Under the pieces are notes generated by a model. That model searched no databases. It worked only from the letters and a program-made list of their open reading frames with translations, and was not told the origin of the DNA. A DNA stretch of 64,000 nt from Bacilli bacterium (lineage in GTDB: Bacteria; Bacillota_I; Bacilli_A; RFN20; CAG-826), in contig JAKSUZ010000006.1 of the NCBI GenBank assembly GCA_024408505.1, forward strand, positions 2,073-66,072, written 5' to 3'. Shown one piece after another: positions 1 to 49,320 of this stretch (the first letter of the stretch is position 1; each line of letters begins with the position of its first letter). The position numbers and the translations under genes were made by a program.

Positions 1-3000
1 ATAAGCGATGCTTCCTCACGCTTCTTAATTAATAAAGAATTAACAGGCGAAATTACTAAAAAGATTGATTTGGGCTTTATGAAAAAAGCTTATGCAAACT
101 TAAAACGTGATTATCAAGATTTATTAAAATTAGCAAAAGAATTCTACGAAAGAGACTTTGTTGATAGCGGGAATATTATTGAATTAATTGATGACATAAA
201 TAATGATTATGGTGGTCTTGCAAGCGTTTATCTTGGTGATATTAAGGAAAAACTGATCGCATTAGCGAATCGTCTTTCAATTACACCAAATAATATATTA
301 ACAAGCGCTTTTGCTTATACTCTATCTCGATTTATCAATAATGATAAAGTCTATTTCACTTTTACAAATCATGGTCGTGATTTAGATGGTTTAGATGCCG
401 CGCTTGGTATGTATGTCAAAACTATTCCAATTGTTTTGAATACAAATAATAAATCAGTGGATGATTATCTAAAAGGATCTTCAAAGCACATTTTAGATGC
501 AATGAAGCATAGCGTTTTCCCATTCCGCTTAGTTGCAAGTGAATATCACCTTAAGAAAAATGTTTCGTTTGAATATAATACGAATCTAAATGATGTGACT
601 GGTGTCAGTGAATCGATTTATTATAAACCAGATAAAGAAAAGCACATTTCTCATGTATCGCATTTATTAGGCGTTATCAATGATTATCAAAATGGTTATG
701 TATTAAGCATCGAGCATTCTAGTAGATACACAAAAAATACCATAATTCGTTTCCTAAAAACATATCAAAAAATTATTATTGGCTTATTAAATAATAAAGA
801 ATTAAAGGACATCAACTACACTCTTGATGAAGATCTTAGTGTCTTTAATAAAATTAATGCGACTTCAACTAAACTTGTTTATCACGATATTTTAGAAGCC
901 TTTAATAATTCGCTTAAGAAATACCCAAATAACACATTAGTAACTTATCTTGATAATAAATATACCTATAAAGAAGGCGCGAAATGGATTAATAATCTTA
1001 CTAATAAACTAAATAACATTCCTCAAGGTAGTAATATAGCTATCTTAACTCATCGTTCTCACTATTATTTATTAACAGCCCTTGCGGTTCTTAATCATGG
1101 TTCTACTTATGTTCCAATTGATGATACTTATCCTGATGAACGAATTAAGTTTATGCTTAAAGATAGTGGGGCGAAATGTGTCTTAGTTACTAGCGAAATG
1201 GTTTCTCGCATTAAGACATTGACTGATATCCCGTTTGTTAATGTGAGTGATATTAGGGCAATTGGAGAACTTAAGCCTCTTAAGATAAACACTAACGAAG
1301 ATAGCGTGGCCATAATTTTATATACCTCTGGCACAACGGGAACACCTAAGGGTTCTTTAATTACTCGTAGAGCCATTCTTAATCTCGCTGAATGGTATGT
1401 TCATGATACGAAATTAACAAATCATGATATTTATTCAATGTATGTATCATATGTTTTTGATATGCATACTTTAGGATTCTATACGCCTTTAATTGTCGGC
1501 GCATCGTTAGATATTGTACCGTTCAATGTTCGCTTAAATCTTAATGATCTTAATAAACATTTTAATAAAGTTGGTGGCACTCATACATATATGACCGCTC
1601 AAGTAGGTAAATTATATGCGGAAGGCGGATATAAAACACCAATTAAACTTCTTTGTTTTGGCGGTATGAAGCTTGGCGAACTTCACGCGCCTAATTCAAT
1701 TGGAGCGTTTGAATCATATGGTCCAACTGAAAACTTAGCGATTACGACTTCAATCTTTGCAAATAAACGAATTCATCATTCATCTATTGGTAACTTCATT
1801 CATAACGTTAAAGGATATATCTTAGATCATGAACACCGTTTAGTGCCTTATGGCGCGATGGGTGAACTCTACCTATCCGGTTATCAACTCGCGAAAGGAT
1901 ATCTTAATCGAAAGAAAGAAAACGAAGCGGCTTTCTTTAAAAATCCATTTACTAACGAAAAAGGATACGAAGTCTTATATAAGACAGGTGATATTGTTAG
2001 ACTCTTACCTGATCATACCTTAGGGATTATTGGTCGCGTTGACTCTCAAGTCAAGATTCGGGGTAACCGCGTAGAATTAGGTGAAGTAGAAACATGTATT
2101 AAACAAGTTGATGGTGTTATCGATGTGACGGTTCAAACTATTCAAGTTAATGGTAATAATGAACTTGTTGCCTATGTTGCGACTAAAGACAAAGCCATTA
2201 AAGATAAAGTTATTAAATATGTCGCGAGCCATAAGCCCGCTTATATGGTTCCTAGCCACGTGATGGTTTTAGATAAGATTCCGCTTAACGTTAATGGCAA
2301 AGTTGATAAACGTGCGTTACCGAAAGTAGATGTCAGTAGTAAGAAAGTTAGCTATGTTGCTCCAACTAATGATGTTGAAAAGACTATTTGTGATGCCTTC
2401 GCGAAAGTCTTTAATTTAAAACAAGTTGGTGTGAATGATGATTTCCTTAGTCTAGGTGGTGATTCACTTACCGCAATTCGTCTATTAGCGTTCTTAAAAG
2501 ATTATCAATTAACCGCTGCGGATATTACTAACTTAAAAACTCCAAGACTCATTAGTGAGAAGATTTCGGGTAGTAAGTCATTAAGTCTTGATTTAAATAA
2601 ATATAGTCTCGTAACTGGTGCGCCTTTAAGTGAACAACAACTTAATATTTATCTTGATATTGTAATGAATAAGAAGGTAGATGCCTATCTTATTCCGCTG
2701 GTAACAAATTTAGAAAAATATTCATCTAATGATGTTATTAAAGCTTTAGATAAAATGTTTGAAATTCACCCTATTCTGAAAGGATATGTTGATAATAAAA
2801 ATGACACTCCTTTTATTAAAATAGGTAAAAAACCAAACACGAAAGTTGTCGACAATAACACAAAAATCGATTTAACTAAATTCTTATCGACACCATTTGA
2901 CATTTATCACGAATTATCTCGTTTCTTATATTGCAAAGAGAACAAAACTTTATATGCCGTGTTCCATCATATGATTTTTGATGGTCTATCAACCTTAGTG

Positions 3001-6000
3001 TTCTCTAATCACCTCTTAGCGATCCTTAATAAAAAGGAAGTTGAACCTGATCTTGCTTTCTTAAAAGCCAGTGCCTTTAGTCAAGAAATTAAGAAAACAA
3101 ATTTATACCAAGAAGCCGAAATATTCTATGAAAAAGAATTCGTTGATAGTGAAAAGATTGTGGAGCCTCTCCCGGATATTGGTGAACATCAACCAAGTTA
3201 TACTTCTTTAAAATTAAAAGTTGATCAAAAGCGCATTGATAGTTTTATTAAACGACACGAAATTACCAAGAACGTGCTCTTTACTAGTGTCTTTGCCTAT
3301 ACGCTTTCACGCTTTACTAATACCAATGATGCTTATTTCACAATGATTGAAAACGGGCGAAGTCGTCTTGATGCGCGTGAGGCGATTGGAATGTTTGTCA
3401 ATACCTTACCTTTACTTATTGATTGCTCGAATGATTCAATTGCTAACTTTATTAAGAAGAGTAAAGAAAAGATTTATCAAACCATTAACTATAATTTCTA
3501 TCCGTTTAGATTATTAAATAATAAATATCGAATAAGCGCGAACGTTCTCTTTCAATATCAGCCCGGTGTTAAGCAAACCAAATCGATGAACGATAAGGGA
3601 TTTATTGGTAAAGATGATTTAGCCAATCGTAATGATTTTAACGCTGAACTTTCGTTCGTTCTATCTAGTTCTGATACTGATAATTATCTTGATGTGATTG
3701 CGGGCAAAAAATACGCATCTTCAACTATCAAAAAAATTCTCTTAACCTATGAGCGGATTCTTTGCGAATTTTTGATTAAGGATAATTTAAAAGATATTAA
3801 TTATACACTTGCTGAAGATATTAAAGTTATTGATGGAATCAATTCAACAAGAACCAAGCTTAAATATCACGATATTTTAGAAGCTTTTAACAATTCTTTG
3901 AAAAAGCATCCTAACCATATATTAGTAAGTTATTTTAATGAAAAATATACTTATGCTGAGGGCGCAAAATGGATTAATAAATTAGATGATATCTTTATTA
4001 GCAAAAAGATAAAACGCTACTCCCATATTGCTGTCTTCCCGCATCGTAGCCACTATTATCAATTAGGAGCATTAGCGGTGGAAAATTATAATTCTGCTTA
4101 TGTACCAATTGATGAAGCGTACCCAAACGACCGTATTAAATTTATGATTACGGATACAGCAGCCAGCGCCATCTTGGTTACTAATCAAACATTAGACCGT
4201 GCGAAAGAAATAATTAAAGATTTTAAAGTTAAACCATTAATTATCAATATGAGCGAAGTAATAATCACTAACCAAGATAAAGTTAAACCATTAACTGCAA
4301 AAATTGATCATCAGGATGTTGCTTGTATTCTTTATACTTCTGGTACAACTGGGATTCCAAAAGGAGCGTTAATTCTTCATAAAGGAATTATCAATACCGC
4401 ACAACGCTATGCTACCCAAGTTGCTAATTTATGTGATACGGATAAAGTCACTCTTTATGCCTCAGTTGGTTTTGATGTTCATATGGAAGCTCTCCATTCA
4501 CCAATTTTTGCCGGCGCTACCTTAGACATCACACCTACTAATGTGCGTTTAGATCCAATTGCGTTACTTAAACATTTTGAAACTCACCATGTTACACATG
4601 TCCACTTACCGACCTCTTTAACTAAAATTTTAATTAATCACGAAATTCCATCTTGTATGAAACAAATGGTTACTGGTGGTGCACCGTTAGGAAAAGTAAA
4701 TACCAATCTTCCTTGCGATTTTAAAGATGTGTATGGACCAACAGAAGCAACAATTAACGTTGCCGCTATTCGCGTGAAGGATAAAATTGATCCGACTAGT
4801 GTAGGTAAACCATTAATGAATTCTCGTTGTTATATCCTTGATAAGGAACATCGCTTAACCCCGTTTGGTGGTGTGGGTGATTTATATCTATGTGGTTACC
4901 AAGTATGCAAAGGTTACCTTAATCGCGATAAGGAAAATAAAGAAGCGTTCTTTAAGAACCCTTTCACTAATGAAGAGGGCTACGAAAGAATATATCGTTC
5001 AGGTGACGTTGCGCGTTATTTACCTGATGGAACGATTGCCTACCTTGGTCGGAAAGACTCACAAGTAAAGATTCGTGGTAATCGCGTTGAATTAGGCGAA
5101 ATTGAAGTTACAATTAGAAAAATTAAAGAGGTAAAAGATGTTACTGTTCAAGTCATTGTTAATGATGGTAACAAAGAACTTGTCGCGTATGTCGTTTCTT
5201 CAAATAAAGATATTAAAAATATCATTATTAATTACGTTAGAAATAACCAACCTGAATATATGGTTCCTAGCCACGTGATGGTTTTAGATAAGATTCCGCT
5301 TAACGTTAATGGCAAAGTTGATAAACGTGCGTTACCGAAAGTAGATGTCAGTAGTAAGAAAGTTAGCTATGTTGCTCCAACTAATGATGTTGAAAAGACT
5401 ATTTGTGATGCCTTCGCGAAAGTCTTTAATTTAAAACAAGTTGGTGTGAATGATGATTTCCTTAGTCTAGGTGGTGATTCACTTACCGCAATTCGTCTAT
5501 TAGCGTTCTTAAAAGATTATCAATTAACCGCTGCGGATATTACTAACTTAAAAACTCCAAGACTCATTAGTGAGAAGATTTCGGGTAGTAAGTCATTAAG
5601 TCTTGATTTAAATAAATATAGTCTTGTAACTGGTGCGCCTTTAAGCGAACAGCAACTTAATATTTATCTTGATATTGTAATGAATAAGAAGGTTGAATCC
5701 TATCTTAACCCACTTGTTTTTAAATATGATAAATATACATCGAATGATATCAAGAATGCTCTAACTAAATTGTTTAAGTGTCATCCGATTTTAACTGGTT
5801 ACATTGAAAATGATTCTGATAATAATCCTTATTTAAAAATCGGCCATACACCTATGATTGAGGTTCTAAAGGATTTAAGGAAAAATGATATTAATAGTTA
5901 TATCGCTGAGCCTTTTAACATTCATAAATCATTATCACGTTTCCTTATTGATGAGAATAGCAAAACTTTATATGCGGTGTTCCATCATATAATTTTTGAT

Positions 6001-9000
6001 GCTTTATCTCGTGCTGTTTTTAGAAATCACCTCTTAGCGATCCTTAATAAAAAGGAAGTTGAACCTGATCTTGCTTTCTTAAAAGCCAGTGCCTTTAGTC
6101 AAGAAATTAAGAAAACAAATTTATACCAAGAAGCCGAAATATTCTATGAAAAAGAATTCGTTGATAGTGAAAAGATTGTGGAGCCTCTCCCGGATATTGG
6201 TGAACATCAACCAAGTTATACTTCTTTAAAATTAAAAGTTGATCAAAAGCGCATTGATAGTTTTATTAAACGACACGAAATTACCAAGAACGTGCTCTTT
6301 ACTAGTGTCTTTGCCTATACGCTTTCACGCTTTACTAATACCAATGATGCTTATTTCACAATGATTGAAAACGGGCGAAGTCGTCTTGATGCGCGTGAGG
6401 CGATTGGAATGTTTGTCAATACCTTACCTTTACTTATTGATTGCTCGAATGATTCAATTGCTAACTTTATTAAGAAGAGTAAAGAAAAGATTTATCAAAC
6501 CATTAACTATAATTTCTATCCGTTTAGATTACTTAAGAATAAATATAATTTATCCGCGAATATTGATTTCCAATATCAACCAAATAACTTTAGTAGTCAT
6601 CTGGATACGAACGCGCATAATTTACTTTATCGTGATAACTTAAAGAAACGAACCGATTTAATTAGTGATTTAGCGATTGTTGCTACCGATAACGAAATTA
6701 ATATTGTTAGTAGCAAAAAATATGCCCAATCGACCATTAAAAAGATGTTATCTACCTATGAGCAGATTCTTAACGAGATTTTAGTGAAGAATTCTTTAGC
6801 GGATATCAATTATACTCTTAATGAAGATCTTAGTGTCTTTAATAAAATTAATGCGACCTCAACTAAACTCGTTTATCACGATATCTTAGAAGCCTTTAAT
6901 CATTCACTTAAGAAATATCCGAATAATACTTTAGTGAGTTACCTCGATACTAAATATACATATTCTGAAGGCGCGAAATGGATTAATAATCTTACTAATA
7001 AACTAAATAACGTTCCTAAGAAGAGCAATATCGCAATCCTTACTCATAGATCCCACTTCTATCTATTAACGGCCTTAAGCGTTTTAAATCATGGTTCCGC
7101 CTATGTTCCAATTGATGATACTTATCCGGATGAAAGAATTAAGTTCATGCTTAAAGATAGTAATGCGAAAGTAGTGTTAGTCACAGATGAAACCATTAAC
7201 CGTGTTAAGAAACTTACTAATATTCCTGTTATTAATGTAAGTGATATTAAATCATCAGGAACACTGAAACCGTTAAAGACTAACAATAAAGATGATTTAG
7301 CCGCGGTCATTTTATATACCTCAGGGACAACCGGAACACCAAAAGGTACGATTTTGCCTCGGAAAGCGATTTTGAATTTAGCGGAATGGTGCGCGCACTT
7401 CACCTCTTTAACTAAAACTGATGTATTCGCGTTATATGTTTCAATTGGTTTTGACGTCCATATTGGTTCGCTTTATTCCCCTTTATTAACCGGGGCAAGT
7501 TTAAACGTTATTCCTACGGATATCCGTCTTGATCCAAACCAGCTTATTAATTATTTTAACCAATATCATATTAGCCATGTCTTCTCGGTTACCGCTTTAA
7601 CCAGAATCCTTCTTGATAATCAACTACCAAAAGAATTGCGGGTCATGTTTACTGGTGGTGAAGCCTTAGGCGAAGTTAATCAACATCTTACTTGTTCTTT
7701 ATATGATGCTTATGGACCAACTGAGTCGACGGTCTTATCAACAGTAATTGATGTAAAAAAGAAAATATCAGCTTCTAGTGTCGGTCATCTTTTAGCAAAT
7801 ATTAAAGGTTACGTCTTAGATCATGAGCGGCGTCTCGTCCCTTATGGCGCGATGGGTGAACTCTACCTATCCGGTTATCAACTCGCGAAAGGATATTTAA
7901 ATCGAGATAAAGAAAATAAAGAAGCTTTCTATCTTAATCCATTCTCGAAAGAAAAAGGTTATGAAAGAATGTATAAGACGGGAGATATCGTTAGATACTT
8001 ACCTGATGGGACCTTTGGCTTTATTGGTCGAGTGGACTCTCAAGTTAAAATCCGTGGTAACCGTGTTGAACTAGGTGAAGTAGAAGCAACCATTCGCGAA
8101 GTTAAAGAAGTTAAAGATGTCACAGTTCAAACTATGATTAATAATAACAATAAAGAACTTGTCGCCTATCTTGTCTCTAGTGATAAAGCCATTAAAGATA
8201 AAGTTATTAAATATGTCGCGAGCCATAAGCCCGCTTATATGGTTCCTAGCCACGTGATGGTTTTAGATAAGATACCGCTTAATGTTAATGGCAAAGTTGA
8301 TAAACGCGCGTTACCGAAAGTAGATGTCAGCGCGAATATTCATTCTTGTCAACCACCTCGTAATAAATTAGAACAAAGAATGGTTGATTGTGCGAAAAAT
8401 TTATTTAAACTTGCCTCACAAAAAATAGGAATCGACACAAACATGAATAATCTAGGCTTAGATTCATTAATAGCATTACGCTTGTCACTTCTTTATAAGG
8501 CACGCGCTAATATTAGTATTGGCGCTATCGATATTATCAATAATCCAACTATTGAAAAGCAGATTGCGTTTGTTAAAAAGTTCACATATCAACCGATTCA
8601 TACCTTCAATTTAAGCAAGGGCAAAAAACATTTATTCTTTGTCCACCCTGGACAAGGTGGTAGTGAATCATATCAAGAATTAGCAAAATTACTAGGAAAG
8701 AATGTTTCCTTCTCGGTTTTTGAGCATTACAATTTATTCCACCTTAATCAAAGAATCAAAGGAATTAAAAACATTGCGAAATATTATGTTAAATTATTGA
8801 AAGCGCAGCAACCGCATGGGCCATATTATTTAGGCGGTTATTCTTATGGTGGCAATATTGCATATGAAATGGCGGTTATTTTAGCTAAAGATCATGAAGA
8901 AGTTAGGAACCTTTTCTTGCTCGATTCAGCTACAAGAAGCGTACCGCTATCAAAGGAAGAGATGATTAAATTAGTCGATGCGGAAACAAAAAATATCACT

Positions 9001-9318
9001 ATCAAACAAAAGAATTTAACTAATGAAATGGCAACTGCTTATAAGACAATTTCGTTATTTGTATCCGAAGATTTAAATGGCTATTCACCATCTCGATATG
9101 ATGGAGAAGTAACATTCTTTAAGGCTAACAAAAAGAATAAAAAGATTGCGGGGTTACCAAAGTCAACATACCAAAAAATTTCTTCATCTAGAAACTTATA
9201 CTTAAAGAAAAAAGCAAATTTTATAATATGCGATATTGATGCTTCGCATGATGAATTGTTAGACGAAAAACCGAGAAACAAAATTGCAAAAATTATTGTA
9301 AAGCAACTTCTTAATTAA
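1..9318 (+). CDS. Non-ribosomal peptide synthetase, 5'-partial: (C)-A-T-C-A-T-C-A-T-TE
   Basis: Frame is open from base 1, so the true start lies upstream. Three A domains (YTSGTTGxPKG, YGPTE, Y[K/R][T/S]GD, QVKIRGNRVELGE, NGKVDK), three carrier motifs (LGGDSL, LGGDSL, LGLDSL), C-domain motifs HHMIFDG (2965-2985) and HHIIFDA (5983-6003), thioesterase GYSYG (8836-8850). Confidence 0.97.
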   Translation: MSDASSRFLINKELTGEITKKIDLGFMKKAYANLKRDYQDLLKLAKEFYERDFVDSGNIIELIDDINNDYGGLASVYLGDIKEKLIALANRLSITPNNILTSAFAYTLSRFINNDKVYFTFTNHGRDLDGLDAALGMYVKTIPIVLNTNNKSVDDYLKGSSKHILDAMKHSVFPFRLVASEYHLKKNVSFEYNTNLNDVTGVSESIYYKPDKEKHISHVSHLLGVINDYQNGYVLSIEHSSRYTKNTIIRFLKTYQKIIIGLLNNKELKDINYTLDEDLSVFNKINATSTKLVYHDILEAFNNSLKKYPNNTLVTYLDNKYTYKEGAKWINNLTNKLNNIPQGSNIAILTHRSHYYLLTALAVLNHGSTYVPIDDTYPDERIKFMLKDSGAKCVLVTSEMVSRIKTLTDIPFVNVSDIRAIGELKPLKINTNEDSVAIILYTSGTTGTPKGSLITRRAILNLAEWYVHDTKLTNHDIYSMYVSYVFDMHTLGFYTPLIVGASLDIVPFNVRLNLNDLNKHFNKVGGTHTYMTAQVGKLYAEGGYKTPIKLLCFGGMKLGELHAPNSIGAFESYGPTENLAITTSIFANKRIHHSSIGNFIHNVKGYILDHEHRLVPYGAMGELYLSGYQLAKGYLNRKKENEAAFFKNPFTNEKGYEVLYKTGDIVRLLPDHTLGIIGRVDSQVKIRGNRVELGEVETCIKQVDGVIDVTVQTIQVNGNNELVAYVATKDKAIKDKVIKYVASHKPAYMVPSHVMVLDKIPLNVNGKVDKRALPKVDVSSKKVSYVAPTNDVEKTICDAFAKVFNLKQVGVNDDFLSLGGDSLTAIRLLAFLKDYQLTAADITNLKTPRLISEKISGSKSLSLDLNKYSLVTGAPLSEQQLNIYLDIVMNKKVDAYLIPLVTNLEKYSSNDVIKALDKMFEIHPILKGYVDNKNDTPFIKIGKKPNTKVVDNNTKIDLTKFLSTPFDIYHELSRFLYCKENKTLYAVFHHMIFDGLSTLVFSNHLLAILNKKEVEPDLAFLKASAFSQEIKKTNLYQEAEIFYEKEFVDSEKIVEPLPDIGEHQPSYTSLKLKVDQKRIDSFIKRHEITKNVLFTSVFAYTLSRFTNTNDAYFTMIENGRSRLDAREAIGMFVNTLPLLIDCSNDSIANFIKKSKEKIYQTINYNFYPFRLLNNKYRISANVLFQYQPGVKQTKSMNDKGFIGKDDLANRNDFNAELSFVLSSSDTDNYLDVIAGKKYASSTIKKILLTYERILCEFLIKDNLKDINYTLAEDIKVIDGINSTRTKLKYHDILEAFNNSLKKHPNHILVSYFNEKYTYAEGAKWINKLDDIFISKKIKRYSHIAVFPHRSHYYQLGALAVENYNSAYVPIDEAYPNDRIKFMITDTAASAILVTNQTLDRAKEIIKDFKVKPLIINMSEVIITNQDKVKPLTAKIDHQDVACILYTSGTTGIPKGALILHKGIINTAQRYATQVANLCDTDKVTLYASVGFDVHMEALHSPIFAGATLDITPTNVRLDPIALLKHFETHHVTHVHLPTSLTKILINHEIPSCMKQMVTGGAPLGKVNTNLPCDFKDVYGPTEATINVAAIRVKDKIDPTSVGKPLMNSRCYILDKEHRLTPFGGVGDLYLCGYQVCKGYLNRDKENKEAFFKNPFTNEEGYERIYRSGDVARYLPDGTIAYLGRKDSQVKIRGNRVELGEIEVTIRKIKEVKDVTVQVIVNDGNKELVAYVVSSNKDIKNIIINYVRNNQPEYMVPSHVMVLDKIPLNVNGKVDKRALPKVDVSSKKVSYVAPTNDVEKTICDAFAKVFNLKQVGVNDDFLSLGGDSLTAIRLLAFLKDYQLTAADITNLKTPRLISEKISGSKSLSLDLNKYSLVTGAPLSEQQLNIYLDIVMNKKVESYLNPLVFKYDKYTSNDIKNALTKLFKCHPILTGYIENDSDNNPYLKIGHTPMIEVLKDLRKNDINSYIAEPFNIHKSLSRFLIDENSKTLYAVFHHIIFDALSRAVFRNHLLAILNKKEVEPDLAFLKASAFSQEIKKTNLYQEAEIFYEKEFVDSEKIVEPLPDIGEHQPSYTSLKLKVDQKRIDSFIKRHEITKNVLFTSVFAYTLSRFTNTNDAYFTMIENGRSRLDAREAIGMFVNTLPLLIDCSNDSIANFIKKSKEKIYQTINYNFYPFRLLKNKYNLSANIDFQYQPNNFSSHLDTNAHNLLYRDNLKKRTDLISDLAIVATDNEINIVSSKKYAQSTIKKMLSTYEQILNEILVKNSLADINYTLNEDLSVFNKINATSTKLVYHDILEAFNHSLKKYPNNTLVSYLDTKYTYSEGAKWINNLTNKLNNVPKKSNIAILTHRSHFYLLTALSVLNHGSAYVPIDDTYPDERIKFMLKDSNAKVVLVTDETINRVKKLTNIPVINVSDIKSSGTLKPLKTNNKDDLAAVILYTSGTTGTPKGTILPRKAILNLAEWCAHFTSLTKTDVFALYVSIGFDVHIGSLYSPLLTGASLNVIPTDIRLDPNQLINYFNQYHISHVFSVTALTRILLDNQLPKELRVMFTGGEALGEVNQHLTCSLYDAYGPTESTVLSTVIDVKKKISASSVGHLLANIKGYVLDHERRLVPYGAMGELYLSGYQLAKGYLNRDKENKEAFYLNPFSKEKGYERMYKTGDIVRYLPDGTFGFIGRVDSQVKIRGNRVELGEVEATIREVKEVKDVTVQTMINNNNKELVAYLVSSDKAIKDKVIKYVASHKPAYMVPSHVMVLDKIPLNVNGKVDKRALPKVDVSANIHSCQPPRNKLEQRMVDCAKNLFKLASQKIGIDTNMNNLGLDSLIALRLSLLYKARANISIGAIDIINNPTIEKQIAFVKKFTYQPIHTFNLSKGKKHLFFVHPGQGGSESYQELAKLLGKNVSFSVFEHYNLFHLNQRIKGIKNIAKYYVKLLKAQQPHGPYYLGGYSYGGNIAYEMAVILAKDHEEVRNLFLLDSATRSVPLSKEEMIKLVDAETKNITIKQKNLTNEMATAYKTISLFVSEDLNGYSPSRYDGEVTFFKANKKNKKIAGLPKSTYQKISSSRNLYLKKKANFIICDIDASHDELLDEKPRNKIAKIIVKQLLN
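2242..2678 (+). repeat. NRPS internal repeat A, copy 1 (copy 2 at 5257-5693)
   Basis: 437 bp at offset 3015; by eye only 3 synonymous differences, all near the 3' end. Covers A-domain C-terminus, T domain and C-domain start. Confidence 0.9.
3007..3513 (+). repeat. NRPS internal repeat B, copy 1 (copy 2 at 6025-6531)
   Basis: 507 bp, apparently identical, offset 3018. Covers the C domain just after the HHxxxD motif. Confidence 0.9.
5257..5693 (+). repeat. NRPS internal repeat A, copy 2
   Basis: Near-identical to 2242-2678. Confidence 0.9.
6025..6531 (+). repeat. NRPS internal repeat B, copy 2
   Basis: Apparently identical to 3007-3513. Confidence 0.9.
8185..8330 (+). repeat. NRPS internal repeat C (matches 2191-2336)
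   Basis: 146 bp with about 3 mismatches, offset 5994; A-domain C-terminal subdomain shared by modules 1 and 3. Confidence 0.85.
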
Positions 9319-9389
9319 CCATAAAGCAAGTTTTAATATTATTTAATTATGCAATTTATTAAAAAAATAAAATAATATAATAGCAGCAT

Positions 9390-10306
9390 GGTTAATTTTA
9401 AATATTTATGTCTATTCTCAATAGTGGTAATAGGTGTGGTAGAATTCTCGTCTTCATACCAAGCAATAAAGTTTTACCCATCCTTACAGCATCTTTTAAT
9501 GTTATCACGTCTTCAATCGTGAAATTTTCTGGGTTATCCTTATCGTTAGTCCCACCATTAAGATACCAAGTAATACCATATGATATTGCGCTAAATCTCC
9601 CGTACAAAATAGTATTCTCGGCGCTTATACTAGTTTGTCATCAATTTTATTTCCGCCCTCTGCCTTATCTAACCAACCATCGAAATTGTATCCTTCACGA
9701 GTTGCTTTTTTTAAGACTAAGTGATTCACCTTTTCTAGCCATGTTTTATTTTCAGGTGGATTAATAGCATCTTCAGGCAAAATGTATTCAATTTTACATA
9801 AATCAGTTGAATCATAAGATTCAACATATGTATATAGACTTTTACTAACCCAACCTGTATATGTATATTTAATTTGCTTTTCGTAGTCGTATGAAACAGC
9901 TGAATGTGTTTGAGGAAAATAATTTTCTACATCCCCTCCTCTAGGAACTTCAACTGTTTCGGTTGGTTTGCCATCAGCATATTCAAAATAATAAGAGGTT
10001 GAAATTTTTACACTTTCTTGTTTTTCTTGATAATTGCAATTTTGCTTATATTCCCATGTATATGTGTATTCATAGTAGTAATCATCATGCTTAGGAGTAT
10101 TCTCAGGGTAATTTTTTTAACATCTTCGCCAGTAGGTACTTCTTTATTAACTGAATGACCATCAAAAAATGTAAAACTATAAGTAGTAGATGTAGGAGTA
10201 GAAGTCGGTTCTGCCCTGGATCATCTCCACCGCCTTTTGAACAAGACGCTAAAACAGATACCGAAAATAGAGCGATGAAACTTAAAAATATGGTCTTCGT
10301 TTTCAT
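9390..10306 (-). pseudogene. Frameshifted surface lipoprotein with InlB B-repeat (Flg_new)-like repeats
   Basis: Signal peptide with lipobox VLAS-C from ATG 10306. Switching frames joins AEPTSTPTSTTYSFTFFDG, YYFEYADGKPTETVEVPRGG..YTYTGW, SLKKATREGYNFDGWLDKAEGG and YGITWYLNGGTNDKDNPENFTIEDVITLKDAVR. About five frameshifts; 3' end approximate. Confidence 0.8.
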
Positions 10307-10428
10307 AAGTCTAATTTATCATAGAACCCCCCGTCAACTTTTGCACTTTGCAAAAATATTGTTTATTTGCCAAAAAGTTGTACCATAGTACTAACTCAAC
10401 CGAGTACAAAAAATCGGGTACACATCAT

Positions 10429-10458
10429 TTAGCCTCTTTTTGTTAAGTAACTAATAAG
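10429..10458 (+). repeat. 30-bp direct repeat, copy 1
   Basis: TTAGCCTCTTTTTGTTAAGTAACTAATAAG, exact copy at 10808-10837. Confidence 0.95.
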
Positions 10459-10494
10459 CCTATTACGGTTATTTTTAAGTGGAGGTAGATAATT

Positions 10495-10764
10495 ATGAAA
10501 AGAGACTTAAAAAGTATGGTGGAATTAAAAGAATTTCTAAAAAATCCCTCACCGAATTTAAAAGTTCCGGTGTATACTGAAAACGAAGATGGAGCTAAAC
10601 CAGTGAAAAATACAAAAGATAGAGTCACATTGAAGCAAGTCGTTGATATGATCCAAAAAATGGATGATAAAATGGATGCTGGTTTTAAACAAGTAAATGC
10701 CCGTCTTGATTACATCGTAGGCGTAAATAATCTAAAAGATCTTCCAAAAACAAAAAGTAAGTAA
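10495..10764 (+). CDS. Small hypothetical protein with short C-terminal coiled coil
   Basis: GGAGGT ribosome-binding site upstream of ATG; 89 aa; heptad-like QKMDDKMDAGFKQVNARLDYIV. Confidence 0.75.
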   Translation: MKRDLKSMVELKEFLKNPSPNLKVPVYTENEDGAKPVKNTKDRVTLKQVVDMIQKMDDKMDAGFKQVNARLDYIVGVNNLKDLPKTKSK

Positions 10765-10807
10765 ATTCTATATTTACTTTGTAAATATAAAAAAATAAGT
10801 GAGGAAA

Positions 10808-10837
10808 TTAGCCTCTTTTTGTTAAGTAACTAATAAG
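10808..10837 (+). repeat. 30-bp direct repeat, copy 2
   Basis: Exact copy of 10429-10458; here it overlaps a weak GAGG/CCTC hairpin with T-tract. Confidence 0.95.
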
Positions 10838-10917
10838 GAGGATATTGTGCATATGCACTTTATCTTTCCTAGGCGCCTACCCTTTATCTCCTTGGTGCTG
10901 CAACAAAGGAGGAGAGC

Positions 10918-10983
10918 GTGCTCGATACCATTTTGCTGATGGTAGTATTGACGTTACTGATTGAGTTAATCTCGCGAAGGTAA
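10918..10983 (+). CDS. Putative type I toxin, 21-aa hydrophobic peptide MLDTILLMVVLTLLIELISRR
   Basis: AAAGGAGG SD 5 nt before GTG; single hydrophobic helix with basic C-terminus; TAA TGA stops; anti-SD TCTCCTT upstream. Too short for the ORF track. Confidence 0.7.
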   Translation: MLDTILLMVVLTLLIELISRR

Positions 10984-10985
10984 TG

Positions 10986-11021
10986 AAAAAAGGGCGGTCA
11001 TCCCGTCCTCAACATTAAGCG
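10986..11021 (-). ncRNA. Putative antisense antitoxin sRNA (minimum extent; may read through over the toxin ORF)
   Basis: Lies downstream of a near-consensus minus-strand promoter; minus-strand hairpin AGGACGG-GATGA-CCGCCCT followed by a T-run. Boundaries inferred. Confidence 0.45.
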
Positions 11022-11026
11022 AAATA

Positions 11027-11055
11027 ATGATAGCACCTCGTAGGAGTCTTGTAAA
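11027..11055 (-). promoter_or_regulatory. Sigma-A-type promoter, antisense to the small ORF
   Basis: Minus strand reads TTTACA-17 nt-TATCAT with extended -10 TG (TGcTATCAT). Confidence 0.65.
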
Positions 11056-11069
11056 GGGGCGAGTGCCGA

Positions 11070-11090
11070 CCCGGATCCTTTGGGTCCGGG
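11070..11090 (+). terminator. GC-rich hairpin closing the putative toxin mRNA
   Basis: CCCGGATCC-TTT-GGGTCCGGG, 9-bp stem with one G-U; poor U-tract, so it may be a stabilising hairpin. Confidence 0.5.
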
Positions 11091-11103
11091 GTTAAATATT
11101 AGT

Positions 11104-44430: not shown

Positions 44431-45336
44431 ATGAAGGCGATCTTTGTTTATTCAGTTCTTTCTGGATTCATTAATATAACGCGTTTTATTCCTTTAATTG
44501 AGCGAAAGTTGAAAGAGAAATTTTCAGAATTAAAAATTATTGAAACTAAAAATGAGGAAGAATTAAAAGAAGCATGTCTATTAGCATGTAAAGAATATGA
44601 ATATTTAATTTTTGTGGGCGGAGATGGTGCGGTCAATTCAGTTATTAACAATATCGCCAATCAAGAAAAGAAACCGATATTAGGTTATATTCCTGGAGGG
44701 ACCACTAATGATTTTGCAAAGAATTTTAAACTTTCACGTAGTATACGCTCTGCCTTAAAAAAGATTATTAAAGGCGCTCCCGCTCCGTTTGATATTTTTA
44801 AAGTTAATAATAAATATGTAGCTTATGTTTTAGCTTGTGGGGCTTTTAGCGAAATATCATATACCGCTAAAAGAAAAACCAAAAAAGCAGTCGGCCCTTT
44901 AGCATATTATCTACTAGCAATGCGTGATGTTTTTATTCCTAGACGCGTAATCGGAAAATTGTCTTGTAATGGAAAAAGCTATGATGTGAACACACCGTTT
45001 TTGTTAGTGCTTAATGGTAACCATGTTGGCGGTTTCTATTTAAATTTTAAGAACAAAATTAATGATGGCAAATTTAATATCTATATTACTAAACCGGGCG
45101 TGTTTAATGGTTTGCTTCATTATCTATTCTTTAAGATGAAGACGGTCAAAATTCAGACTGATCATTTTACTTTTACTTTTTTAAGTAAACCTACTCCATG
45201 GTGCATTGATGGTGAACTCGCAAATATGGAAAATGTCGAAGTAAAATGTTATCCAGCTCATTTAAAAATAATGACTTCAAAACGAATGGCGAAAAAACTT
45301 TATAGTCAACAAGCGGTGGCGGTAGAACAAAAATGA
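44431..45336 (+). CDS. Diacylglycerol/lipid kinase family protein
   Basis: GGDG, PGGTTNDFA, IDGE. Confidence 0.9.
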   Translation: MKAIFVYSVLSGFINITRFIPLIERKLKEKFSELKIIETKNEEELKEACLLACKEYEYLIFVGGDGAVNSVINNIANQEKKPILGYIPGGTTNDFAKNFKLSRSIRSALKKIIKGAPAPFDIFKVNNKYVAYVLACGAFSEISYTAKRKTKKAVGPLAYYLLAMRDVFIPRRVIGKLSCNGKSYDVNTPFLLVLNGNHVGGFYLNFKNKINDGKFNIYITKPGVFNGLLHYLFFKMKTVKIQTDHFTFTFLSKPTPWCIDGELANMENVEVKCYPAHLKIMTSKRMAKKLYSQQAVAVEQK

Positions 45337-47198
45337 AAAATTATGATGTGATAGTGGTTGGTGGTGGACATGCGGGCGTTGAGGCTGCGCTTGTTTCAGC
45401 GCGAATGGGCGTTAAAACCTTATTGACCACATTAAATATCAAAAAGATGTCTAACATGCCTTGTAATCCTTCGATTGGCGGTTCTGCGAAAGGAATTGTG
45501 GTACGCGAGATTGATGCAATGGGCGGAGCAATGGGGATTGCAGCTGATCATACCTATTTACAAATGAAAATGCTTAACACTGGTAAAGGACCAGGAGTTC
45601 AATGTCTAAGAGCGCAGTGTGATAAATATGATTATCCACACTATATGCAAGAGCTATGTTTACATACCAAAAATTTAACGGTTAAAGAATGTGAAGTGAA
45701 GGAACTTATTTACGATAAACATAAGGTTAGTGGTGTTATTACTAATAAAAAAGAACGTATAAAAGCTAAAGCAGTCATTATTACTACTGGAACTTTTATG
45801 AATGCTTATATTTATCATGGGAAAAATAAAATAAGTGCTGGTCCTGATGGTGAAAAGCCTAGTATTGGACTTAGTGATTGCCTTCGTAAAATGGGACTAT
45901 CACTAATTCGTTTAAAGACCGGAACTCCTCCACGCATTAAACGCGAATCAATTGATTTTAAGAAAACCGAAATTCAATTAGGAACGCCTGGTAAATTAGC
46001 ATTCTCTTATCTTACGAACAAATTCGTGGATATTAAAAAACAATTACCGTGTTATTTAATCTATACAAACGAAAAGACACATGCATTAATACGTGCGCAT
46101 CTTGATGAATCCGCTCAATATAATGGAACTGTTCAAGCAACTGGTCCTCGTTATTGTCCAAGTATCGAAGGTAAAGTGATGACCTTCAAAGATAAGAAGA
46201 GACATCAATTATTTTTAGAGCCTGAATATAAGGATCAAGAATCAATTTATCTACAAGGTTTCTCAACTTCTATGTCTCATCCAGTTCAGGAAAAGATGGT
46301 GCATTCTTTGAAAGGACTTGAAAAAGCAGTTTTTCTTAAATATGCTTATGCGATTGAATACGATGCCATTGATCCACTTGAATTTAATCTTTCGTTAGGC
46401 GTAAAAAAATACCAAGGATTATATGGCGCTGGACAAATATGTGGTACTTCAGGATATGAAGAAGCCGCAGGCTTAGGATTAGTCGCTGGCATTAACGCTG
46501 TCCATTATATTAAAAAGAAAAAACCATTTATTTTAAAGCGCAATGAATCATATATTGGAGTAATGATTGATGATATTGTCACTAAAGGCATTACTGAACC
46601 ATATCGTTTACTATCAAGTCGTGCTGAATATCGATTGTTGCTTCGTCATGATAATGCAGATATTCGTTTAACACCTATCGCAAAGAAACTAGGCATTATT
46701 GATAATAAGCGCTATCAAATGTTTATTAAGAAAAATGAACAAATAAAAAAAGCGATGAAGTTATTAAACGTCACTCGCTTTGGTAGTAAAAGTGAAGTGA
46801 ATGCCTATTTAAAAACATTAAAGTACGATAATTTATCTGCAGGTACTTCGGCTTTAGATTTATTACGTCGCCCAAATGTTAGACTTGTTGAGCTATATTC
46901 ATATGTTAAAGGATTAAAGGAACTTAAATTAACTGATATCGCTATTTTCCAAATTGAAGTGAGTGTAAAATATGAAGGTTACATTCGTAAGCAATTAAAA
47001 GAAGCAACTGAATTTAATAAGATTGAAGATACATTAATTCCGAATAATATTGATTATCTTCATATGGATGGTTTAGCCTTAGAAGCTAGACAAAAAATGG
47101 ATAAGATTAGACCACATTCAATTGGACAAGCAAGTCGTATCTCCGGTGTAAATCCAAGTGATATCGCTATCTTAGTGCTAAACTTAAAGAAGAAATAA
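45333..47198 (+). CDS. mnmG: tRNA U34 carboxymethylaminomethyl modification enzyme
   Basis: GGGHAGVEAA, CNPSIGG, RLKTGTPPR, GPRYCPSIE, GYEEAA, SRAEYRL. Confidence 0.98.
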   Translation: MKNYDVIVVGGGHAGVEAALVSARMGVKTLLTTLNIKKMSNMPCNPSIGGSAKGIVVREIDAMGGAMGIAADHTYLQMKMLNTGKGPGVQCLRAQCDKYDYPHYMQELCLHTKNLTVKECEVKELIYDKHKVSGVITNKKERIKAKAVIITTGTFMNAYIYHGKNKISAGPDGEKPSIGLSDCLRKMGLSLIRLKTGTPPRIKRESIDFKKTEIQLGTPGKLAFSYLTNKFVDIKKQLPCYLIYTNEKTHALIRAHLDESAQYNGTVQATGPRYCPSIEGKVMTFKDKKRHQLFLEPEYKDQESIYLQGFSTSMSHPVQEKMVHSLKGLEKAVFLKYAYAIEYDAIDPLEFNLSLGVKKYQGLYGAGQICGTSGYEEAAGLGLVAGINAVHYIKKKKPFILKRNESYIGVMIDDIVTKGITEPYRLLSSRAEYRLLLRHDNADIRLTPIAKKLGIIDNKRYQMFIKKNEQIKKAMKLLNVTRFGSKSEVNAYLKTLKYDNLSAGTSALDLLRRPNVRLVELYSYVKGLKELKLTDIAIFQIEVSVKYEGYIRKQLKEATEFNKIEDTLIPNNIDYLHMDGLALEARQKMDKIRPHSIGQASRISGVNPSDIAILVLNLKKK

Positions 47199-47200
47199 TT

Positions 47201-47872
47201 ATGACTTATCAAGAATTAGAAAAAGAATTTAATATCAACGCGAAACAAGTTGATAAGTTTTTAACTTATTTATTAGAGACTAATAAAAAGATGAACTTAA
47301 CTGCGATTACCAATAAAGAAGAAATGATTAGTAAACATATTTATGATTCATTACTTATTAGTAAAGCTTATGATTTTAAAAACAAAACTATTTTAGATGT
47401 TGGTAGCGGTGGAGGTTTCCCTGGCATTCCGCTTGCAATGCTTTATCCAACTTCACATTTTGTGTTAGTGGATTCAACCATGAAGAAAGTTAAATATTTA
47501 GATGAAGTCGCTAAGGCGCTTAATCTTACAAACGTTGAAGTGAAATGCGCTCGTGTTGAAGAGTTAAACGAAAAAGAAAAATACGATGTGGTAATTGCTC
47601 GTGCTTTAGCAGAATTAAGAATTTATCTTGAACTTGTTACTTACCTAGTAAAAGTAAATGGAAACGTTATTGCGCTTAAAGGAAAAAATGCAAACGATGA
47701 ATTAGCCGCTAGCGATAACGCAATCAAGAAATTAAACTTATCATTAAATAAAATACAAGCCACCGCAATTCCTACAGGTGAAAAACGTATGAATCTGATT
47801 TTCACTAAAATTAAAAGTACGGATAAATCCTATCCACGCGAATTTAGTCAAATTAAAAAAAGACCACTATAA
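47201..47872 (+). CDS. rsmG: 16S rRNA m7G527 methyltransferase
   Basis: NLTAI, HIYDSL, DVGSGGGFPGIP, ARA, YPR. Confidence 0.96.
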   Translation: MTYQELEKEFNINAKQVDKFLTYLLETNKKMNLTAITNKEEMISKHIYDSLLISKAYDFKNKTILDVGSGGGFPGIPLAMLYPTSHFVLVDSTMKKVKYLDEVAKALNLTNVEVKCARVEELNEKEKYDVVIARALAELRIYLELVTYLVKVNGNVIALKGKNANDELAASDNAIKKLNLSLNKIQATAIPTGEKRMNLIFTKIKSTDKSYPREFSQIKKRPL

Positions 47873-47890
47873 TATAAGGAGAGGTATTCT

Positions 47891-48490
47891 ATGAATAAGA
47901 CTAACAAAACTTTAAAAATTATCACCGCTTCAACAATTGCAATTGCGAGCCTTGTAATGGTTATTCTTGCAATTGTTAATTTAGCGAAAAATGGTAGTGG
48001 TGAATCGGAAACCATCGCTTTCCGCATCATCGCTTGTGTTCTTCTTGTTTTAGCTTCAATATTATCAACTTGTTTAGTTGTTGGTGATAATCCACGTCAC
48101 TTTGACGCTAGATTAGTTATTTATAATGGTCTATTACTTGGCACAGGTATTTTTGTAGTTTTACCAGTAGCCGGAGAAGTCGCCGATATTATGGTCGGTT
48201 ATTTAATCCCTTGTTTCCTTATCGGTCTTGGCGTTTTCTTTGTTGTCGCTACTATCATTAGCTTAATTAAGAAAATTAATAATAAAAACACGGATGTTGT
48301 TGCGCTAATTCTTGGTATCCTATTGCTTGTCGCAGGCATTCTTCTTCTTTGTTACGCAGAGAAAACAACCAAAGTTTTATGGTTAGTTATAGGCATTATC
48401 CTACTTGCATCTTCAATTATCGCTTTAGTGAACATAATTAAAAAAGATAAAGTAAAAACTATTGATGTTACTGATACTACAAAGAATTAA
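47891..48490 (+). CDS. Six-TM membrane protein, function unknown (HdeD/DUF308-like pattern)
   Basis: Six hydrophobic helices; AAGGAGAGG SD. Confidence 0.75.
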   Translation: MNKTNKTLKIITASTIAIASLVMVILAIVNLAKNGSGESETIAFRIIACVLLVLASILSTCLVVGDNPRHFDARLVIYNGLLLGTGIFVVLPVAGEVADIMVGYLIPCFLIGLGVFFVVATIISLIKKINNKNTDVVALILGILLLVAGILLLCYAEKTTKVLWLVIGIILLASSIIALVNIIKKDKVKTIDVTDTTKN

Positions 48491-49320
48491 TTATTCTTAC
48501 TAATATTTTCTAAAAACTTATCTTTTTCTTTATTGTTAGTGAAACTAATCACTAGAGTTTTATCTTTATTATCTACTTCGCATTTAAATTTCTTTAATAA
48601 GATTACCGAAGTATCTTGATTACCTTTTGCATGTTTCTTTTTCGCTAAACCTTCAATCTCACGAACTGATAAACCTTCTTCGTAGATTTTATTCACCAGT
48701 TCTTCAATTGAAGTTTCTGGTAATGATGCAATCGCTTTAGCGTGTCCATAACTTAACTTACCAACCGAGATATCATCAATAATCCATTTTGGTAAATTAA
48801 GTAATCTTAAGATATTAGTAATTTGTGAACGTGATTGATGAGCGAGCTCCGCTAAAGTAGTTTGATTGTAATTATATTTCTCGCTTAATTCTTTTAAGAC
48901 TAATGCAGTTTCGATAATATTCGCATCCCGTTGTTCGCGGTTATCCGCAAGTAGCATAAAAAGCATTTCTTCATCGCTTACATTAATGATTCTTGCGGGT
49001 GCTTTATAAATCTTATATTTCTTCATCGCTAATAAACGCTTACGACCAAAAACGATTTCGTAATAGTTTTTCTTAGGACGCACAATTAATGGATTAGTTA
49101 ATCCATTTTTATTAATACTATCCGCGATATTTTTTAAAGCATCATTAGGGATTACTGCACTTTTAATAATTGCATTGTCATCAATATTAGTCACTAACAA
49201 TTCGGTTGATTTAGCTTGACGGAGATTTTTCTCCATCTCTTCGATTACATAGCTCTTTGAAAAACGATTAACTAATTTAGAGAGTTGGTTTTTCTTTAGC
49301 AATCTATTTGTTTTGTTCAT
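48487..49320 (-). CDS. parB: ParB/Spo0J partition protein
   Basis: NGLTNPLIVR, GRKR, DNREQRDAN, HTH SRSQITNILRLL, LSYGHAKA, LSVRE. Confidence 0.92.
   Translation of the reverse strand: MNKTNRLLKKNQLSKLVNRFSKSYVIEEMEKNLRQAKSTELLVTNIDDNAIIKSAVIPNDALKNIADSINKNGLTNPLIVRPKKNYYEIVFGRKRLLAMKKYKIYKAPARIINVSDEEMLFMLLADNREQRDANIIETALVLKELSEKYNYNQTTLAELAHQSRSQITNILRLLNLPKWIIDDISVGKLSYGHAKAIASLPETSIEELVNKIYEEGLSVREIEGLAKKKHAKGNQDTSVILLKKFKCEVDNKDKTLVISFTNNKEKDKFLENISKNN

Follow-up and report, generated by a model that had tools for sequence, protein, structure and literature searches.

A modular peptide synthetase gene in a reduced-genome Bacilli bacterium and its apparent kinship with synthetases of gut methanogens

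The stretch of DNA analysed here (64,000 nt, positions 2073 to 66072 of the 75.5-kb contig C50; hereafter the window, to which coordinates without a contig name refer) belongs to G000, the genome of a Bacilli bacterium (1,233,700 bp in 53 contigs, completeness 86.7%, contamination 0.9%), and opens with the greater part of a gene for a large nonribosomal peptide synthetase (NRPS). Positions 1 to 9318 of the plus strand form a single stop-free frame of 3105 aa with an open 5' end; upstream on C50 it stays open as far as base 3, for a total of 3795 aa (about 11.4 kb). The rest of the window contains housekeeping genes (two FtsX-type ABC transporters, ychF, ispF, argS, rpoE, fba, mntR, feoB, dnaX, recR, suf, gltX, mnmG, rsmG and parAB) and, as a sequence-only reading had stated, no phosphopantetheinyl transferase (PPTase), MbtH protein, tailoring enzyme or dedicated regulator downstream of the NRPS gene. 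Other contigs of G000 are given by their C numbers, and its genus mates are called G001 to G006.

Domain organisation of the synthetase gene

Domains were called with Pfam on ten consecutive pieces, and their borders were set with hidden Markov models (HMMs) built from the gene itself. The order found by Pfam in the window was a partial Condensation domain, three units of AMP-binding, AMP-binding_C and PP-binding with Condensation domains between them and, last, a Thioesterase domain. This bore out the earlier proposal of a large multimodular NRPS with three adenylation-carrier units and a terminal thioesterase (TE). The domains, all on the plus strand, are as follows.

1 to 885, plus strand: C-terminal two thirds of a condensation (C) domain (Pfam Condensation, domain HMM; its HHMISD motif is just upstream of the window)
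889 to 2310, plus strand: adenylation (A) domain A1, pocket DMLYCGSAIK (Pfam AMP-binding and AMP-binding_C; TSGTTGTPKG, NGKVDK)
2371 to 2586, plus strand: carrier (T) domain 1 with the GGDSL serine (Pfam PP-binding, motif)
2596 to 3870, plus strand: C domain 2, HHMIFDG (Pfam, motif, HMM)
3874 to 5325, plus strand: A domain A2, pocket DVEHVGVINK (Pfam, alignment, HMM)
5386 to 5601, plus strand: T domain 2 with the GGDSL serine (Pfam, motif, HMM)
5611 to 6879, plus strand: C domain 3, HHIIFDA (Pfam, motif, HMM)
6883 to 8304, plus strand: A domain A3, pocket DVGFFGAVLK (Pfam, alignment, HMM; above the TIGR01733 cut-off)
8365 to 8586, plus strand: T domain 3 with the GLDSL serine (Pfam, motif, HMM)
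8605 to 9318, plus strand: terminal TE with the GYSYG nucleophile motif and the stop codon (Pfam Thioesterase, motif)

The first of these C domains starts 374 nt before the window. In the approximately 2 kb of frame upstream of the window, the last part of an A domain is followed by a carrier domain and by a pair of adjoining Condensation-family domains, the first epimerase-like (E-like) and the second a C domain, in agreement with the expectation that at least one further module lay upstream. With C-A-T repeats in one polypeptide, three in the window and one upstream, the gene has the organisation of a type I modular NRPS. All the motifs sought were intact in the frame: HHxxxD four times (residues 288, 688, 1679 and 2685 of the 3795-aa frame), TSGTTGxPKG three times, NGKVDK with the A10 lysine four times, G(G/L)DS(L/I) four times, and GYSYG in the TE. 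The TE match (Pfam Thioesterase, E 7.7e-17) covers only the first half of the profile. No close match to a characterised cluster was obtained, as none of the curated NCBIfam models AusA, EntF, SolG and MxcG was reached (best AusA, with 262-309 bits against a cut-off of 2500). The E-like domain carries PIQEYF, HHLIIDGVSW, ESHGRD, QTIGWCTAIYP and FNFLSD, which we take to be the epimerisation (E) motifs E1, E2, E4, E5 and E7. Because this domain precedes it, the first C domain of the window probably accepts a D-configured donor.

The island and the other assembly lines of the genome

Further NRPS pieces were sought in G000 by tblastn, with Pfam and with the domain HMMs. C14 carries a complete NRPS of 1820 aa (A*-T-C-A-T-TE, where A* is a starter A domain) between rpoC and dprA. 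An NRPS start (A*-T-C-A) begins at C20:2026 and runs off the contig, as does another start (A*) on C45, which is preceded by two ABC exporter genes; C30 holds a T-TE terminus and C49 a C-domain fragment. Since there are three TE domains, three A* starters and three sets of pieces, G000 possesses three assembly lines, and NRPS DNA amounts to about 24.1 kb, or 1.96% of the genome. Besides the two exporter genes, the region upstream of the third start (C45:1596-8830, minus strand, locus L029) encodes three DUF6273 proteins and a pyridoxal-phosphate enzyme resembling threonine synthase. On C30, the T-TE terminus is likewise followed by a DUF6273 gene, and these neighbours on C45 and C30 are possibly accessory genes of that assembly line.

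The sequence-only reading had suggested looking for an Sfp-type PPTase elsewhere in the genome, and a candidate was found on C23. The sole PF01648 match in G000 is a 204-aa protein (C23:66100-66714, minus strand) encoded beside recA, with AASDHPPT_N and ACPS domains; its best NCBIfam model is AusB, whose cut-off it does not reach. By its domains, this protein is an Sfp-type PPTase, encoded about 23 kb upstream and unlinked to the NRPS gene. No PF03621 (MbtH) match was found in the 86.7%-complete genome.

The NRPS gene of the window lies, as judged by synteny, on an island between fhs/DUF951 and a conserved backbone of ABC transporter and ychF genes. The pair of ABC transporters and ychF downstream of the NRPS gene occur in the same order in G001, G003, G004 and G005. 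In G001, whose ychF is 96% identical to that of G000, similarity to the window resumes at about 10,814 (tblastx) or 10,759 (blastn). A 1.9-kb segment with fhs and DUF951 (G001:C71:6962-8852) matches C23:85083-86967 of G000 at 88% and then runs directly into the equivalent of window position 10759 onward. As sequence from the C23 side thus adjoins the window-side backbone directly, G001 has a precise empty site. The DNA of G000 between these flanks consists of C23:86968-88150, C20 (55-nt overlap), an unassembled gap and C50:1-12830, in total at least 19,599 nt. The upstream part of the gene, which the sequence-only reading had wished to see recovered, was therefore not lost but is found on C23 and C20, and the synteny at the empty site assigns the C20 starter to the C50 terminus. 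From left to right the island would comprise a 48-nt repeat, a decayed IS3 transposase, an acyltransferase fragment, the NRPS gene (C20, gap, C50), a lipoprotein pseudogene, an 89-aa open reading frame (ORF) and a second copy of the 48-nt repeat. The IS3-family transposase at the left end (C23:87020-88150 and C20:2-295; OrfA with HTH, OrfB with HTH_21, rve and rve_2) is frameshifted and present in a single copy in G000, and its reading frame crosses the C23/C20 joint. An Acyl_transf_3 fragment separates it from the NRPS start. The features at the right end of the island are listed here.

9319 to 10758, strand not assigned: island tail, without counterpart at this site in G001; small ORFs without Pfam match
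About 9400 to 10310, minus strand: lipoprotein pseudogene (signal peptide with lipobox cysteine, broken frame, 'GYNFDGW'-type repeats)
10495 to 10764: 89-aa ORF, belonging to a three-copy repeat unit
10759 to 10806, plus strand: 48-nt hairpin repeat at the right border, with an identical copy at the left border (C23:86917-86964) and one copy at the empty site of G001

The 48-nt repeat holds a perfect hairpin and occurs in five exact copies in G000, including one that follows the C14 NRPS at a distance of 500 nt; as a repeated intergenic element, it may act as a recombination site. The C14 gene sits in a second island, as the rpoC-dprA spacing is 480 nt in G003 and 7,052 nt in G000, where both genes flank the NRPS. 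Just past its stop, C14:11242-11331 is a 91-nt remnant of an insertion sequence (IS) end that shares 82% identity with the start of the island on C23. If the A domain cut off on C20 is continued by the partial A domain at the start of C50, the gap between them measures about 520 nt, and the minimal enzyme would be A*-T-C-A-T-E-C-A-T-C-A-T-C-A-T-TE, a five-module protein of about 5,170 aa. The lengths of several relatives (5,155-5,236 aa) agree with this model.

We also considered whether the two ABC transporters downstream of the NRPS gene belong to the island as its exporter. They were ruled out as island genes, since the pair and ychF are kept in genus mates devoid of NRPS; they could nevertheless export the product. 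A unit formed by the 89-aa ORF, the 48-nt repeat and about 290 nt of conserved non-coding, stem-loop-containing sequence is found at window 10495-11100, C23:37100-37600 and C3:33630-34130. The three copies of the unit are near-identical, and each is located just upstream of a gene, which in the window is the first ABC transporter gene. The 290-nt stretch is 86% conserved in G001 and may be a leader or a regulatory RNA; Rfam gave no match in window 9300-11100.

We compared positions 1-9800 of the window with contigs from four public runs (three studies). Two repeats lie within the gene and occupy matching places in modules 1/2 and 2/3, respectively.

2242 to 2609 and 5257 to 5624, plus strand: exact 368-nt intragenic repeat covering the end of A and the start of T; public-run contigs stop at its edges
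3007 to 3513 and 6025 to 6531, plus strand: exact 507-nt intragenic repeat in the middle of the C domain

The public-run contigs cover the region piecewise at 95-100% likeness, with some bins uncovered, and the pieces listed end at or near the repeats (e.g., 3484-5286). One piece (8277-9800) bridges the last carrier domain, the TE and the downstream spacer. Of the differences listed in the NRPS frame, 31 of 40 are synonymous, with 72 further differences beyond those listed; part of them may stem from paralogous modules. No RNA data set figured among the public runs listed as carrying the sequence. The first 340 nt of C50 are an exact copy of C50:4177-4516, which implies that the contig starts at an assembly break inside a repeat. 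The 55-nt overlaps of contig ends point to a short-read graph assembly, in which near-identical copies can be printed as identical. Outside the window, the last 100 nt of C50 (C50:75404) are repeated 5.3 kb upstream at C50:70080, again a repeat at an assembly break. Within the window, mnmG, rsmG, parB and parA are clustered at 45333-50077, and their presence together suggests that the window is probably near the replication origin.

To read the substrate pockets, the A domains were aligned with the A domain of B. subtilis PpsC, and ten positions were taken by rules based on the structure of PheA. The PpsC domain, used as a control for this reading, gave DVFWIGGTFK, which we take to be close to the code for Val. 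To our knowledge, none of DMLYCGSAIK, DVEHVGVINK and DVGFFGAVLK is a textbook code. A1 is 58% identical to a Methanobrevibacter-labelled domain reading DIAYCGSAIK, compared with 51% for its neighbour A2, and the module types would therefore predate the split of the hosts. The alpha-amino group of the substrate is bound by Asp235 in A domains that activate amino acids. The starters on C20, C14 and C45 have Ile or Ala in this column, as do two Methanobrevibacter-labelled starters, and the Ile of the C20 starter was also seen in the HMMER alignment to both A domains of LgrA. Since Asp235 is replaced, the starter substrate is probably not an alpha-amino acid. On this basis, we propose that the unlinked Sfp-type PPTase would prime five carrier domains, that A* would load a carboxylic acid other than an alpha-amino acid, that four elongation modules would add amino acids, the first of which would be epimerised, and that the TE would release an N-capped tetrapeptide with a D-residue, linear or cyclised. 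Of this scheme, the domain order, the intact motifs, the island borders, the presence of a PPTase and the family relations can be read directly from the DNA; the join across the gap, the substrates, the epimerisation, the product and its export are predictions.

Relatives, distribution and origin

A search with the last module scored 7,999 candidates, of which 311 proteins matched at E <= 1e-30. The best 120 of the 311, which were listed, include paralogues from G000, two fragments from 'Bacilli bacterium' metagenome-assembled genomes (MAGs; 67% and 51% identity) and then, as named matches, 11 Methanobrevibacter-labelled entries at 39-46%; ordinary NRPSs from named bacteria (B. subtilis PpsC and those of Paenibacillus and cyanobacteria) appear in this list at 25-31%. 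When the whole window protein was used (candidates of 1,707-5,434 aa, at least 120 matches), the named entries at 35-48% were 18 from Methanobrevibacter and one from Methanomassiliicoccales (LGM-RCC1), and seven named bacterial entries among the matches listed were at 26-28%. Overall, every named relative at 33-58% identity has an archaeal label and the same architecture, and ordinary bacterial NRPSs come to 26-34%. The Methanobrevibacter entries lie on contigs of up to 223 kb, the LGM-RCC1 entry on one of 1.66 Mb. A scan of genome contigs returned one relative, a 'Bacilli bacterium' MAG contig with 51% identity. A scan of metagenome contigs with a Methanobrevibacter-labelled query returned one 7.6-kb contig, whose only neighbour gene had no family match.

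The domains of 23 chosen relatives were parsed, with E-like calls made by an HMM derived from the single E-like domain of the present gene. They displayed an A*-T start, C-A-T repeats and interspersed E-like domains. The A*-T start was present in 10 of the 23, most others being cut proteins, and six had TE ends or matching fragments (P0137, P0148, P0153 and P0159; P0017 and P0030 are fragments). For a FastTree phylogeny of A domains, we required coverage of at least 400 of the 474 positions of the profile, which 169 of 256 matches had, and dropped three duplicates of G000 genes, leaving 166 rows. The elongation A domains of G000 and G005 and all Methanobrevibacter-labelled elongation domains formed a clade of 56 rows (support 100, stem 0.73). 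Outside this clade, with Alistipes and Bacteroidales sequences, fell the A domains of a different, reductase-ended NRPS (R-type) found in the same order. A quick IQ-TREE analysis of 44 chosen rows gave a 24-row clade (support 100, stem 1.0) with the R-type group as its sister (support 98). Forcing all 12 Bacilli rows together, a group named after the tree had been seen, cost 482.6 log-likelihood units (approximately unbiased (AU) test, p = 7.8e-43). In a tree of starter domains (62 rows, LG+G4 quick), the starters of C20, C45 and G006 grouped with two unnamed proteins and then with a Methanomassiliicoccales sequence (long branches, support 97). Methanobrevibacter-labelled proteins, together with unnamed ones, made up a separate clade of 40 rows, and the C14 starter paired with a protein from another genus of the family. 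The sequence-only reading had proposed a Methanobrevibacter likeness from the A-domain style (LDHEHRLVPYGAMGELYLSGYQLAKGYLNR..AF..NPF and FDMH/FDVH, both present in the translation), and this likeness holds: archaeal labels are attached to all named relatives that are 33-46% identical over the full length or a module, the A-domain clade is strongly supported, and the AU test agrees.

That NRPSs are uncommon in the clade was also confirmed. Of the 301 genomes sampled across the order, G000 included, 24 had a Condensation match (20 of 239 high-quality ones). Most of these carry a different, two-module NRPS; in the genomes examined outside the genus it is a C-A-T-C-A-T-reductase protein of about 2412 aa, encoded between a PPTase gene on the upstream side and a MatE-kinase fusion gene on the downstream side. 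A search with A3 gave matches at E <= 1e-60 in 18 of the 301 genomes; outside G000 all these matches were 32-43% identical and in R-type genes. The TE-type NRPS was found in none of the 300 other sampled genomes of the order. Within the genus, Condensation domains were found in G000, G005 and G006 and not in G001, G002, G003 and G004 (completeness 61-90%), i.e., in 3 of 7 species. Such patchiness, together with precise empty sites in sister species, does not fit ubiquitous vertical inheritance. PPTase homologues (52-73% identity) were found in G001 (two), G002, G005 and G006, and none in G003 and G004. G006 has an NRPS end, with two genes for ABC exporters after it, 10 kb upstream of recA-PPTase, at a locus that differs from both islands of G000. 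In other genera of the order, for example L034 (G269:C2:107000-122000), L033, L035 and L040, three genes form a conserved cluster; they encode the PPTase, the 2412-aa R-type NRPS and a fusion of a MatE exporter with an ATPase domain of histidine-kinase type.

Taken together, these data make it probable, in our judgement, that the frame at the start of the window is the 3' three quarters of an apparently functional type I NRPS, carried by a laterally mobile island of at least 19.6 kb. By its domain plan and its place in the trees, the gene belongs, as a bacterial representative, to the NRPS family with the plan A*-T-(C-A-T)n-(E)-TE, which abounds in gut methanogens. This family would have reached or left the Bacilli genus by inter-domain transfer within the gut, in either direction. 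Because of the grouping in the starter tree, several transfers would be needed whichever the direction.

A number of points weigh against this reading or parts of it. In the TIGR01733 model, A1 and A2 score slightly, and the starter A well, under the cut-off. The assignment of the domain after the upstream carrier as E (T-E-C) draws on motifs and on an HMM built from this one domain, and the pocket residues depend on an alignment and on position rules. The join between C20 and C50 spans an unassembled gap, so that more than one missing module, or a pairing of C20 with the C30 terminus, is conceivable. As independent contigs break at the repeats, the order of the two approximately 400-nt pieces between them and the '100%' identity of the repeats come from the original assembler alone. 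A possible swap of these two pieces is the sole ambiguity that we see, and the architecture would be unaffected either way. The 48-nt border repeat cannot be considered a unique att duplication, given its five exact copies in the genome. The archaeal attribution of most relatives reflects database labels of metagenome bins; it appears firmer for the sequences on the 1.66-Mb and 223-kb contigs and for the published isolate genome of M. ruminantium. Finally, as G001 keeps two PPTase homologues and no NRPS was found in it, a loss in G001 fits as well as a gain in G000.

The last point bears on another explanation, which we find conceivable, if on the unlikely side: the NRPS is vertically inherited from a Bacilli ancestor, most lineages having lost it and a few retained it, and gut methanogens acquired theirs from such bacteria, the direction proposed in the literature. 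The R-type A domains of the order are sister to the whole clade and 35-41% identical, the GC content of the gene (0.32-0.35) is the same as that of the genome, the PPTase homologues of G001 agree with a recent loss, and two papers (PMC2812497 and PMC8241843) argue that the archaeal NRPSs are of bacterial origin. However, the TE-type was found in only 3 of 7 genomes in the genus and in none of the 300 others sampled, its loci differ among genus mates (beside recA in G006; at fhs/ABC and rpoC/dprA in G000) and have IS remnants at their borders, and the starter tree places the Bacilli sequences with Methanomassiliicoccales, apart from the 40-row Methanobrevibacter clade. A more specific version of the transfer would have the assembly lines move from archaea to the minimal-genome bacterium by recombination at the short, repeated, terminator-like element, three of them being kept since their peptides mediate partnership or contest with methanogens in the herbivore gut. 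We offer this scenario as speculation, and think it improbable in such detail.

Also improbable is the idea that the island is a decaying relic whose synthetase is no longer productive. A frameshifted transposase, an acyltransferase fragment and a lipoprotein pseudogene do lie in the island, which is absent from the sister species and has no adjacent dedicated exporter or regulator. Yet the 11.4-kb frame is open with every catalytic motif intact, the public-run differences listed are mostly synonymous, and three parallel lines and a PPTase have been retained in a 1.2-Mb genome. Methanobrevibacter has a similar GC content, C50 begins in a repeat and NRPS repeats fragment assemblies, but it is very improbable that the NRPS of a co-occurring low-GC methanogen was wrongly joined or binned, since the gene shares a 75.5-kb contig with Bacilli core genes syntenic with the genus mates, a public-run contig bridges the TE and the downstream spacer, a second, complete NRPS lies between rpoC and dprA, and the archaeal relatives are only 36-58% identical, far from near-identity.

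If the gene is indeed a bacterial member of the methanogen family, as we favour, its interest is the following. Since 2010, NRPSs have been recognised in gut methanogens, and rumen genomes hold very many of them, without an established product or role. The same family would here be intact, in three copies and on bordered islands, in uncultured Bacilli with one of the smallest free-standing gut genomes, providing a concrete bacterial partner for an inter-domain exchange at which network analyses only hinted. It would also mean that strong genome reduction is compatible with a costly secondary metabolism. The 1820-aa A*-T-C-A-T-TE gene of C14, with the PPTase of the same genome, would be a compact and complete bacterial member, whose expression in bacterial hosts should be less difficult than that of the archaeal genes.

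Comparison with known systems

In limited searching, we found no paper on such NRPSs in reduced-genome Bacilli. The link between the NRPSs of methanogens and Firmicutes has, however, already been published in general terms, and our finding is therefore less new than the sequence-only reading implied: Anderson & Fernando 2021 (PMC8241843) counted 687 NRPS clusters in 125 archaeal genomes from the rumen, with Methanobrevibacter as their sole carrier where genomes were near-complete. They note a similarity to NRPSs of Firmicutes families and argue for a bacterial origin.

The R-type NRPS of about 2412 aa comes from the same host order, and its A domains form the sister group of the clade. It differs by a C-domain start, a reductase instead of a TE at the end, and its own PPTase and exporter in the cluster, and a grouping of both types in one clade was rejected by the AU test. 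The gene of the window, which ends in a TE, is thus not a reductase-terminated dipeptide NRPS. The R-type resembles a gut family of dipeptide-aldehyde NRPSs, reportedly described by Guo et al. in 2017. It also resembles mru0068 of M. ruminantium (PMC2812497). The mru0068 locus parallels the R-type cluster, so that both NRPS types of M. ruminantium have counterparts in this Bacilli order.

The best relative with a solved structure is LgrA, the linear gramicidin synthetase (PDB 6MFZ and others), which shares the A-T-C-A-T modules (last module, E 7e-172; starter, E 4e-122). LgrA differs in starting with a formylation domain and in having a Val-activating A domain with an FD motif, whereas the present system has a starter without the Asp and a TE end. 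The Methanomassiliicoccales LGM-RCC1 NRPS (P0130, 5198 aa) is 37% identical over 93% of the window protein, with the order A*-T-C-A-T-C-A-T-C-A-T-E-C-A-T-C. Its starter groups with those of this genus and its length fits the five-module model; it differs in that E stands elsewhere in the order, that no TE was found by the HMMs and that its host is an archaeon.

Among the closest described systems are the many Methanobrevibacter NRPS clusters of rumen MAGs (PMC8241843) and that of M. ruminantium M1, for which Leahy 2010 (PMC2812497) report mru0351 as an NRPS with four modules and a TE, an unlinked PPTase and a product that is unknown, and suggest a bacterial origin. The present system differs in its host, a 1.2-Mb bacterium, and in the lack of an adjacent MatE exporter. 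It shares with mru0351 the multimodular organisation, the TE end and the unlinked PPTase, and mru0351, to judge by labelled relatives, would belong to the same clade. Database entries labelled Methanobrevibacter have the A*-T-(C-A-T)n-(E)-TE plan and fall into one A-domain clade with the present gene, at 36-58% identity.

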